A stretch of 6,815 nt of DNA from a virus. Taxonomy: Duplodnaviria > Heunggongvirae > Uroviricota > Caudoviricetes. Positions 1 to 3,000 of this stretch are shown piece after piece (position 1 is the stretch's first letter; each line of letters begins with the position of its first letter). A program made the position numbers. The stretch is taken from positions 1 to 6,815 of the IMG/VR virus record IMGVR_UViG_2737471819_000003; one strand, 5' to 3'.

Positions 1-3000
1 CCACGCGCACTAACCCTTTTCTTACCTGACCGACAAAAGTTAAAGAATCTGAGCATGATGCAATTGGTGTTACATCATGTACCAAATCAAGCCACCCATT
101 AGGTAACCCAAGCGCGGCTTCAAATTTTCTTGCTAGTTTATCCCCTATGTTTCGAGTGCTTTTTTCACCGGAGACTTGCGTGAGTTGAGAAGGGCTAACC
201 CCAAGCTTATCGGCAAAGCTTGCATTAGTGTTACCCGCGATTTTTTTATGCTCATCTAGCAAAAACGCCAGATTCGATTTGCGAATATCTTTGTTTTCCA
301 TCTCACAATTTTCCCTCTATTTAGCAAATGGATAAATACGCAATATGATAAATTTACATTGCGGTTGATTTATCAAAATGGTAAAGTTATTCTGTGTGAT
401 AAACGGAGGCACTAATGAGTAATGAACTACTACGCTGGCGAAAAGAGGCTTCTAGTGAGGAATGGAAGCGACTCGCCGCATTAGCGAAAACTTCAGTTGG
501 CTATCTTGACCAGATTGCATATGGATTTCGAAGAGCTTCCCCTGATAAAGCGAATGCAATCGAAGAAGCTACTCGTAATTTCACGGGTTATAAACCTGTG
601 AAAAAGGAAAACCTAGTGTTCGTATCGCGTAGAGCATCGGCTGCATAAGTAACACCGCTATTTTCACAATGGACATTCGTCCTACGTCGCTGACAAAGCG
701 AGTCCCAATATATCTGACCAACTAAGGCTACATGCGTTTCCACGCATACCTTTCAACTAACTATTCACTATTGGAAATCTTAAGAAATGGAACAAACAAG
801 TTACAGCAAACTATCCCAGCGTGACGTTGATCGCGCAGAAACAGATTTACTCATCAACCTGTCAACGCTTACCCAGCGCGGTCTGGCAAAGATGATTGGC
901 TGTCATGAATCGAAGATAAGCAGAACGGACTGGAGGTTTATTGCTTCGGTCCTGTGTGCTTTCGGAATGGCATCAGACATCAGTCCGATTAGCAGGGCTT
1001 TTAAGTATGCGCTTGATGGACTCACCAATAAAAAACGCCCGGCGGCAACCGAGCGTTCTGATCAAATACAAATGGAATTTTAACAACATCCAACGAGGTA
1101 ATTATATGCGAAAAACGCAGGAAAATAAACGCGTTAATCACCGAAAAGATGTGCTACGTGACCAGTTTTATCAGGGGGTTAATCCAGCAATAGCTGTGCC
1201 ACTGAGAGAAATACTTAACAGGTACAAAACTTCGGAGAAGTCAAAATGAGCATGAATCTTATGGCTAAGGCCATGAATATAAAGGTTGGCAACCCACTGA
1301 GAAAACTGGTTCTGATTAAACTTGCCGATAACGCCAATGATAATGGCGAATGCTGGCCTTCATATCAACATGTCGCTGACCAGTGTGAGGTGAGCAGATC
1401 GACAGTAAAAAGTCACATTAGGGCACTGGAAGATATGGGGCTTTTGAAAAGGGAATTCAGAAGAAAAGGAGAGCTTAACCAGTCAAACGTTTTTTATCTG
1501 ACGTTGGATAATGCACAACAAATCCAACCAGAATTAGGTGGGGCAGGAGCTGACCGGGGTGGGGCAGGAGCTGACCCCAGAACCTATCACTCTTTTGAAC
1601 CAGTCAATGAACCTAAAAACATTAAGTTCGAACGTGTCCGAACGAAGTGCGAAAAATCATCTGACCGTCACGAAGAAACCGACAAGGCATTCGAGGAAAT
1701 ATTCTGGTGTGCAGGCATGCGGAAAGCCGGGAAGAAAAACGCAGCTTCGGCATTCAGAACACAGTTCAGGGAATGGCGTAAAACTACCGGGGGTACGGCA
1801 AGCGAGTTTGCCACGATGCTGGCAGAAGACATCGCATGCAGGAATGGTAAGCAGTTCGGATTCGACAGGTTGTTACCATCGAGCTACCTGAACGGTCAGC
1901 GCTGGAACGACGAGAAGCCAGAAACCATTCAACCACAAGCCAGACCATCATCCGCAATCACCGTATCGAAAACTGGCTACGTGTTTTTCGACAGGTGAAC
2001 CATGAAATCAAAAATCAAATCGCTACTGGTCGCTGGTTATAACCACGGCTGGTTAAGTATTTCGTTTGTCGATTTCTGGTTTAAAAATCTCAATCTGAGG
2101 GAATCATGACGCCAAGTGAACTTAGCGACCTGCTTTGGGCGCAGGTTGACAGGGTGGCTCCGCACCTGTTGCCAAACGGCAAGAAAGAGGGGCATGAGTG
2201 GGTTGCCGGTAACGTTAACGGTGACAAGGGAAACAGCCTTAAGGTCAACCTTAGCGGCAAGAAAAAATGGGCTGATTTCGCTGAGGGAGACGGCGGTGAC
2301 ATGCTTGATTTGTGGATGGCATGTCGTGGAATTAACCTGCATCAGGCTATGCAGGAAGCGAAAGCATTTCTCGGTATCAAGGATGACGATCACCATTTCG
2401 ATGCCAGACGTGAGAAGAAATTCTCCAGACCTGATCGCAAGAAAATCGCCCGCTACGTTACCAGAACAGAATCCCATCTTGAGTACCTGCAATCGCGTGG
2501 CATATCGCCAGAAGTCGTAAAGCGCTACGAGGTTGTCAGCGGCAAGGTGTGGAATGGAGAACGAGAACTGGATGCTCTGGTGATTCCGTACAAACGCGAT
2601 GGTGAGTTGTTGCAGGTCAAGCGAATCAGCACTGAGCGCCCGGACGGGAAGAAAGTCATTATGGCAGAAGGTGATTGCGAACCTTGTCTGTTCGGATGGC
2701 AGGCTCTGGACGCTGGCGTGAGGGCGGTTGTACTTTGCGAAGGCGAAATTGATTGTATGAGCTATGCGCAATACGGCATCTCGGCGTTATCCGTGCCGTT
2801 TGGTGGCGGGAAAGGCGCTAAGCAGCAGTGGATTGAGTTTGAGTATCACAATCTCGACAGGTTTGAGGAAATATTCATCTCGATGGACGTTGATGATGTT
2901 GGTCGTGAAGCCGCAAGGGAAATCGCAAGCCGACTCGGTGAACATCGTTGCCGTCTTGTTACACTGCCGTACAAAGACATCAACGAATGCCTGATGAACG

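Follow-up and report, generated by a model that had tools for sequence, protein, structure and literature searches.

Does the strand opposite the 3′ end of a phage cII gene encode a small antisense RNA of the oop type, or is its resemblance to phage lambda simply what the CII protein demands? The question is raised by the DNA of 6,815 nucleotides that forms positions 1 to 6,815 of the IMG/VR virus record IMGVR_UViG_2737471819_000003 (hereafter the window; all coordinates refer to it). The oop RNA is a textbook element of phage lambda, and an original prediction, made from the window sequence alone, had proposed an oop-like RNA on the minus strand with a perfect TATAAT, a stem-loop and a U-run, all of which are indeed found at the places given for them (Table 1). 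Judging from sequence comparison, the element is probably (we put the probability at roughly 0.85) a homologue of lambda oop, belonging to the cassette of promoter pO, oop RNA and terminator tO of a lambdoid Shiga toxin 2a (Stx2a)-converting phage.

Homology of the predicted RNA to lambda oop

Lambda oop occupies positions 38675 to 38599 of NC_001416 (77 nt). Over the portion that overlaps cII, the window and lambda oop are identical at 49 of 55 bases, including the entire hairpin and U-run, and over the codons LTNKKRPAATERS the two genomes agree at every position (39/39 nt). The likeness extends to the layout, as both elements share the same position and orientation, a 55-nt overlap with the 3′ end of cII that includes the stop codon, and a −10 hexamer overlapping the following gene's start codon. 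Twenty-five distinct long-form oop sequences (of the lambda, HK, Stx2 II and 933W types, with none of the short type present in the window) served to build a covariance model. Its sole significant match in the window, 1094..1029 on the minus strand (58.1 bits, E 1.7e-10), covers the model from end to end with one 11-nt deletion relative to the long form. Sequence, position antisense to the cII 3′ end and covariance model all bear out the proposed homology. Rfam 15 is without an oop family, and neither the window nor lambda's own oop region gives a match in it at E≤1.

By analogy with lambda oop, which ends in ...UUUUUUA, the RNA is predicted to run from G1094 to A1029 (66 nt), with perfect complementarity to the last 55 nt of cII and to 11 nt of the adjoining intergenic spacer. 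The length of ~68 nt proposed originally corresponds to the span 1027-1094 and is shortened to ~66 nt (1094→1029) by the lambda analogy. The placement over the cII 3′ end stands, although the gene on the promoter side is a 47-residue open reading frame (ORF; 1106-1249) and not, as first thought, the replication initiator (1246-1998).

The tO hairpin, AGAACGCUCGGU-UGCC-GCCGGGCGUUUU (1059..1032), is specific to the minus strand. Its folding energy there is −17.2 kcal/mol (z −3.6) versus −10.2 kcal/mol (z −1.3) on the plus strand, the sense-strand structure being much weaker because of the three G-U pairs. A rightward terminator or a structure in the sense mRNA was rejected on these grounds, since the plus strand offers a weak fold and no U-run. 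A 41-residue minus-strand ORF at 903-1028 was likewise rejected as the product of the locus (a TTG start, antisense within cII, no support). The motifs by themselves occur near chance levels (two terminator-like sites between 600 and 1500 versus 0.9 expected), and the significance of the locus therefore comes from homology and conservation. Another terminator-like hairpin lies within cII at 927-952 on the plus strand and is probably a chance occurrence.

Conservation and covariation of the terminator hairpin

The conservation of the element was assessed on loci gathered through anchors in three cII bodies (window/HK97-, lambda- and epsilon34-type, with 35-41% protein identity) and not through the oop core. 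These anchors replaced an earlier viral contig scan that used the hairpin as its pattern and was biased to the core. Among 251 lambdoid loci with a T-run, 249 have a hairpin and, at the expected fixed distance, a [CT]ATAAT hexamer, with predicted RNA lengths clustering at ~77 nt and ~65 nt. The hexamer persists in front of at least eight coding sequences that are unrelated to one another, and in every case it overlaps or directly adjoins their start codon. At two loci of the lambda cII type (probably L230 and L244) homology is lost inside the hairpin, at the junction of loop and 3′ arm (between GAAAATATCC and GCCGGGCGTTTTTT), and no −10 hexamer is found; this looks like a rearrangement or insertion breakpoint within tO.

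The cII lineage of the window alone carries four hairpin alleles, all of which fold into a terminator. Allele a (CGCUCGGUUGCCGCCGGGCG, CII tail RPAATERS) is that of lambda and the window; allele b, with the loop CUUGCAC that is 3 nt longer, encodes the tail RPVCKTERS in phi24B; allele c encodes SPAATEDF (Stx2 II) and allele d SPVAAGDS (933W). In an alignment of 19 distinct hairpin sequences 97.8% of the cells are paired, a share that falls to 35-60% once the partners are shifted by 1-3 columns. Two pairs have changed on both sides (C-G to U-A and G-C to C-G), four more have changed on one side and remain paired, and the loop varies freely at synonymous sites (GCG, GCC, GCT). In terms of cII coding these compensatory substitutions are non-synonymous (R→S opposite R→D). 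The RNA hairpin itself must be constrained, because the alleles differ by compensatory changes that alter the amino acids of CII.

Overlapping constraints on the CII tail

The near-identity of the last 20 CII residues to lambda, noted in the original prediction, is real (19/20 identical, versus 35% over the whole protein). To what extent protein coding could account for it was examined by synonymous recoding of the stretch 1027-1065 in 40,000 random draws. The recoded sequences shared on average 29 and at most 37 of 39 bases with lambda, versus the 39/39 observed, and the minus-strand fold was as stable as the observed one in only 0.3-0.6% of them. The lambda match thus clearly goes beyond what cII coding explains; a match limited to that had been named as the outcome deciding against the oop-like RNA. 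The last seven cII codons and the stop codon behave differently: among their six base differences from lambda four are synonymous, one is conservative (D/E) and one falls in the stop codon. In lambda CII's C-terminal 16 residues form the signal for degradation by FtsH, and its last residues affect CII activities (PMC5869508).

Overall, both constraints exist and are partitioned along the sequence. Within the hairpin, where residue changes are demonstrably tolerated by the protein, the RNA structure is the dominant constraint; in the last codons it is the protein, the differences from lambda there being mostly synonymous and the pairing partner having been lost from the short-form RNA. The double constraint put forward originally is in this sense supported by the recoding test, the covariation and the pattern of the last codons. 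It is split between two segments, and the spread of a shared cassette by recombination, which accounts for much of the identity, had not been considered.

Since the hairpin dictates the degradation tail of CII, one might speculate that the four tails set different CII half-lives, with effects on lysogenisation or induction among Stx phages, and that the short-form oop without a 5′ stem-loop is a functionally distinct subtype travelling with replication modules of the primase-helicase type. We consider this extension unlikely; neither idea was found in the literature examined.

The pO-oop-tO cassette as a crossover zone

When the 249 loci were sorted by the body of cII, the allele of the hairpin, the type of the 5′ part and the replication-side sequence, 30 combinations emerged. 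Allele a is combined with each of the three cII bodies and with seven replication-side classes; allele b, which has a distinctive loop, is likewise found with each cII body. Promoter and RNA 5′ part go together with the replication side, and the short-W type is seen with two related sides only. The combination seen in the window, the lambda allele a joined to a short 5′ part, is present in 3 of the 249 sampled loci. In the window itself, homology of the lambda/HK629 type stops at 1079, and from 1027 on the window is homologous to epsilon34, g341c and SF6, phages that have the replication module in common with it and a different cII body. These breakpoints agree with the left boundary of the exchanged replication module as originally placed. 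As cII bodies, hairpin alleles and replication modules reassort freely, the cassette is a crossover zone between the immunity/cII and replication modules, at the left edge of the latter. A classical lambda/P22 hybrid carries a hybrid pO, and Clark et al. 2001 have the cassette region as their conserved similarity 'sequence 5' (both as presented in PMC3349717).

Proposed mechanism and its alternatives

The promoter pO is recognisable at the level of sequence, its −10 overlapping the ATG of the 47-residue ORF and lying ~7 nt upstream of the predicted RNA 5′ end. Its hexamers match the consensus at 9 of 12 positions, the same score as lambda pO (TTGAGT-17-CATAAT). At the same spacing, other replication-side classes have TTGAGT, TGGATT, TGGTAT or TGGTAA as the −35. 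From this promoter the host sigma-70 RNA polymerase would start leftward at about G1094 and stop at the intrinsic terminator encoded in the codons of the CII tail. The resulting RNA of ~66 nt would pair with the 3′ end of cII mRNA and the duplex would be cut by RNase III, so that CII would fall and the phage would be pushed toward lytic growth; convergent transcription from pO may also damp transcription from pR into the replication genes. Whereas the homology, the architecture, its conservation, the covariation of the hairpin and the reassortment are shown by the sequence comparisons, we infer transcription, the exact RNA ends, RNase III action and promoter interference by analogy with lambda. 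For lambda oop a 52-base overlap with cII is given, together with references on RNase III (PMC5869508); according to the account there of Krinke & Wulff 1987 and 1990, cII mRNA is cleaved in an RNase III-dependent manner and overproduction of oop shifts the phage to the lytic mode. That oop lowers CII and favours lytic growth is also stated in PMC5488031. Lambda pO interferes with pR, lowering its read-through, and is needed for efficient replication independently of the level of oop RNA (PMC3985674). Because the same DNA encodes the CII tail, constraints on RNA and protein overlap in it, and as the only conserved stretch between two variable modules it is also the place of recombination between the cII/immunity and replication modules.

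Several observations weigh against an oop homologue active in this manner. TATAAT occurs twice in the window versus 2.9 times expected and is not significant alone. A generic promoter scan did not call the pO site, because the best −35 matches at 3 of 6 positions and the scan needs at least 4/6; the site also has no extended −10. (The scan reported minus-strand promoter-like sites at 1368-1340 and 1303-1276, which were set aside as having no conservation evidence.) The −10 overlaps a start codon and the spacer is A/T-rich, so part of its conservation could stem from translation signals. The covariation derives from few independent events, both doubly compensated pairs being common to alleles c and d, and the apparent conservation is inflated by the spread of identical cassettes through recombination. 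Finally, an RNA without the 5′ stem-loop may differ from lambda oop in stability and kinetics.

Could the locus be explained without a functional RNA? One way would be to ascribe the lambda identity to selection on the CII tail as an FtsH degron, the opposite-strand TATAAT and hairpin being mere by-products. The chance-level frequency of TATAAT and the nature of the differences in the last seven codons fit such a view. However, synonymous recodings never reach the 39 identities observed over 13 codons; the hairpin alleles alter up to 8 tail residues, and compensatory non-synonymous changes preserve their pairing; the fold belongs specifically to the minus strand; the −10 is retained ahead of genes that are unrelated to one another; and RNAs of the oop type have been observed in lambda, P22 and BTP1. 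The covariation and the recoding test already largely refute the explanation by protein selection alone, and we give it scarcely any credence. Another way would be to regard the block as a homology patch kept for module exchange, with a possibly silent promoter and a vestigial RNA function. The number of combinations among the loci, the presence of allele b in all three cII bodies, the breakpoints at 1027 and 1079, the hybrid pO of the lambda/P22 recombinant and the equivalence to 'sequence 5' all agree with it, as does the weak −35, which also counts against an active pO. On the other hand, a homology patch needs neither a compensated hairpin nor a U-run nor a −10 at fixed distance, in BTP1 and P22 the same place is taken by hairpins of unrelated sequence, and the window promoter equals lambda pO in its score. 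As the whole explanation, recombination is quite improbable, and it is more aptly regarded as an additional role than as a competing explanation.

One may also suppose that the main element is the promoter, with convergent pO tuning the entry of pR transcription into the replication genes and the antisense effect on cII being secondary. The RNA-independent effect of lambda pO on pR read-through and replication (PMC3985674) is in favor of such a priority, and so is the strict co-segregation of the promoter and RNA 5′ part with the replication-side module. Left unexplained by it are transcripts that always end inside cII and an overlap of ~55 nt in long and short forms alike; moreover, experiments have established for lambda that oop acts on cII as an antisense RNA (PMC5869508; PMC3349717), and tuning by pO is in any case compatible with an antisense role. 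We attach very little probability to the promoter being primary. The homologue of lambda oop, transcribed from pO and ending at tO, remains our preferred reading.

Genomic context of the cassette

The window represents the early-right region of a lambdoid Stx2a-converting phage. In positions 639-6815 it has an identity of 99.3% with Stx2_16002 (LC645439) and of 97.7% with phi24B and Min27, and the 181 bases around the oop-like locus are 100% identical to Stx2_16002. The order cII-oop-orf-O-P has been described (PMC3349717). The 47-residue ORF has annotated counterparts in SF6 and epsilon34, and a Pfam search with it gave no match.

Table 1. Features of the window and of the pO-oop-tO cassette
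Feature	Coordinates	Strand	Description
cro-like ORF	415-648		
cII gene	787..1083	+	98 residues; Pfam Phage_CII, E 2.4e-34; its final 55 nt (1029-1083, with the stop codon) complement the predicted RNA
Block common to lambda itself	1021..1079		59 bp, 93%; 1027-1079 also in phages with another cII body
Predicted oop-like RNA	1029..1094	-	~66 nt; 5′ G1094; 3′ end ...UUUUUUA at 1029
Terminator U-run	1030..1035	-	complements the cII Lys-Lys codons AAA AAA; overlaps the hairpin end
tO terminator hairpin	1032..1059	-	12 bp, loop UGCC; 6 G-C pairs, 3 G-U pairs
5′ part of the RNA	1060..1094	-	on folding mostly unstructured, with a 4+2-bp hairpin only
Spacer between cII and the 47-residue ORF	1084..1105		22 nt (32 nt in lambda); contains the ribosome-binding site GAGG for the 47-residue ORF, as well as the RNA's first 11 nt
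pO −10 hexamer TATAAT	1101..1106	-	first base complements the A of the ATG (1106-1108) of the 47-residue ORF
Best candidate pO −35, TTTATT	1124..1129	-	3/6 to TTGACA; 17-nt spacer; weak
47-residue ORF between cII and initiator	1106..1249	+	in the position of P22 orf48 / HK97 gp53; pO −10/−35 over its start and first codons
HTH_36 initiator	1246-1998		
Primase-helicase (Toprim/AAA)	2106-5012		intein-bearing
NinB, then NUMOD4/HNH endonuclease	right part of window		

Several features of the surrounding genes deserve mention. A mosaic breakpoint lies at ~639, near the end of the cro-like ORF: positions 1-638 are absent from phi24B and Stx2_16002 and match an Stx1a phage (LC645425) at 99.5%. In the initiator gene, a perfect 19-bp direct repeat (GGTGGGGCAGGAGCTGACC, two copies with 21-bp spacing, 1537-1576) encodes GGAGAD twice and may represent an iteron-like origin sequence, as in lambda O. 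The primase-helicase (Toprim_2 and AAA_25) is interrupted by a 341-residue intein with Hint and LAGLIDADG homing endonuclease domains (3222-4244, residues 373-713 of the ORF), inserted directly after the P-loop (the extein-intein junctions reading GHGKA/C and THN/TEVV); the P protein of phi24B, also of 968 residues, is presumably intein-bearing too. The segment 5602-6757 has no counterpart in phi24B. The ninB allele differs and is followed in the window by a NUMOD4/HNH_3 homing-type endonuclease gene (6166-6768), whereas in phi24B ninB directly adjoins a Dam methylase gene, homology with the window resuming from 6758. A weak STnc310-like Rfam match at 254-309 on the minus strand (22.5 bits, E 0.98, under the gathering score) is probably due to chance.

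Annotation and significance

The occurrence of oop in lambdoid and Stx phages is already published, so the feature in the window is real, correctly interpreted and already known, and the current understanding of lambdoid phages is unchanged by it. Its annotation is uneven: oop is annotated in the GenBank record of HK629 and unannotated in that of phi24B. Of 5426 complete E. coli genomes, 177 contain the exact 136-bp stretch and 1313 the core; among the RefSeq E. coli matches listed, the region is labelled as the CII gene only. The gap left by Rfam could be filled with a covariance model of the kind constructed for this analysis. The element matters in that oop lowers CII and so biases the decision between lysis and lysogeny, which in Stx phages controls toxin release. 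The locus is also an evolutionary example of bases that serve an RNA hairpin and a protein degron at once and undergo compensatory, non-synonymous changes, in a stretch that doubles as a module crossover point.

Comparison with known oop RNAs and with lambdoid linkers

Relative to lambda, the predicted RNA is shorter (~66 versus 77 nt). The difference lies wholly in the spacer, because the cII overlap is 55 nt in both phages and the spacer 22 versus 32 nt. A deletion of 11-12 nt in the intergenic part has taken out the 5′ arm of the 5′ stem-loop known from lambda, and synonymous changes have altered what used to be its 3′ arm (CAUCUGGAU to CAUUUGUAU), so that the 10-11-bp 5′ stem-loop of lambda is absent and the RNA has one of the two lambda hairpins. 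The promoters (TTTATT-17-TATAAT in the window, TTGAGT-17-CATAAT in lambda) and the downstream genes differ as well, the 47-residue ORF, helix-turn-helix initiator and primase-helicase standing in the place of lambda O/P.

The P22 oop (63 nt, antisense to c1) has been seen by RNA-seq (PMC13397905), and OOP-BTP1 of Salmonella phage BTP1 was detected in the transcriptome (PMC7067206); with lambda, these are the documented oop transcripts (PMC5488031, PMC13397905, PMC7067206). Both P22 and BTP1 resemble the window in having the short form, a weakly structured 5′ part followed by the terminator, and in the order of a cII-like gene, oop, a small orf and replication genes; BTP1 also agrees with it in the arrangement from promoter to terminator. 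As their oop RNAs are also without the 5′ stem-loop, this structure marks the lambda subtype and not the oop family. In contrast to the window, their 5′ ends retain the GUUGAUUGAUCCAG motif and their terminator hairpins are unrelated in sequence, the lambda-derived covariance model matching BTP1 only weakly (15.7 bits). The short form in the window thus combines the architecture of P22/BTP1 oop with the terminator of lambda.

An oop-like arrangement was also encountered outside these phages. A scan of genome contigs with the 16-mer CGCATATAATTACCTC returned 93 loci, nearly all chance matches in unrelated phyla, and one, in Chimaeribacter californicus (NZ_PJZF01000003; L283 6727-6815), with a promoter-hairpin-U-run layout. 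There the promoter context CGCATATAATTACCTCGTTG is followed by an unrelated hairpin and U-run, antisense to the 3′ end of a 112-residue ORF and ahead of a small ORF and a Phage_rep_O gene. This is oop-like and in another genus, albeit with a 112-residue protein that Pfam does not recognise as CII and with dissimilar small ORFs.

Among Stx phages, oop-like sequences in the cII-O regions have been stated (PMC5488031), and a published alignment of the cassette region covers 23 lambdoid phages, among them 933W, Stx1, Stx2 I/II and VT2-Sa (PMC3349717). The closest relatives of the window in this respect are phi24B and Min27, which share its promoter, RNA 5′ part and replication module (97.7% identity), although phi24B has hairpin allele b, unlike allele a of the window. 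933W (allele d) and Stx2 II (allele c) both have a long 5′ stem-loop in a shifted register (AUUGAU/AUCAAU versus AUCCAG/CUGGAU in lambda; seen in the oop regions of Stx2 II and the EDL933 Stx phage). The shifted stem-loop is accompanied by a change of CII from QIQMEF to QIDMQF (Q→D), and RNA pairing and CII tail seem to co-vary here also.

As a junction, the cassette can be compared with the 'linker' sequences of lambdoid mosaics (Clark et al. 2001; Juhala et al. 2000), which likewise are short conserved stretches between exchangeable modules with breakpoints at their edges. The window does not contain the ACTGGATC part of the 33-bp motif used in the literature to find the linker. Unlike such linkers, the junction in the window would, from its sequence, have a functional content of its own: a promoter, an antisense RNA, a terminator and the tail of CII.

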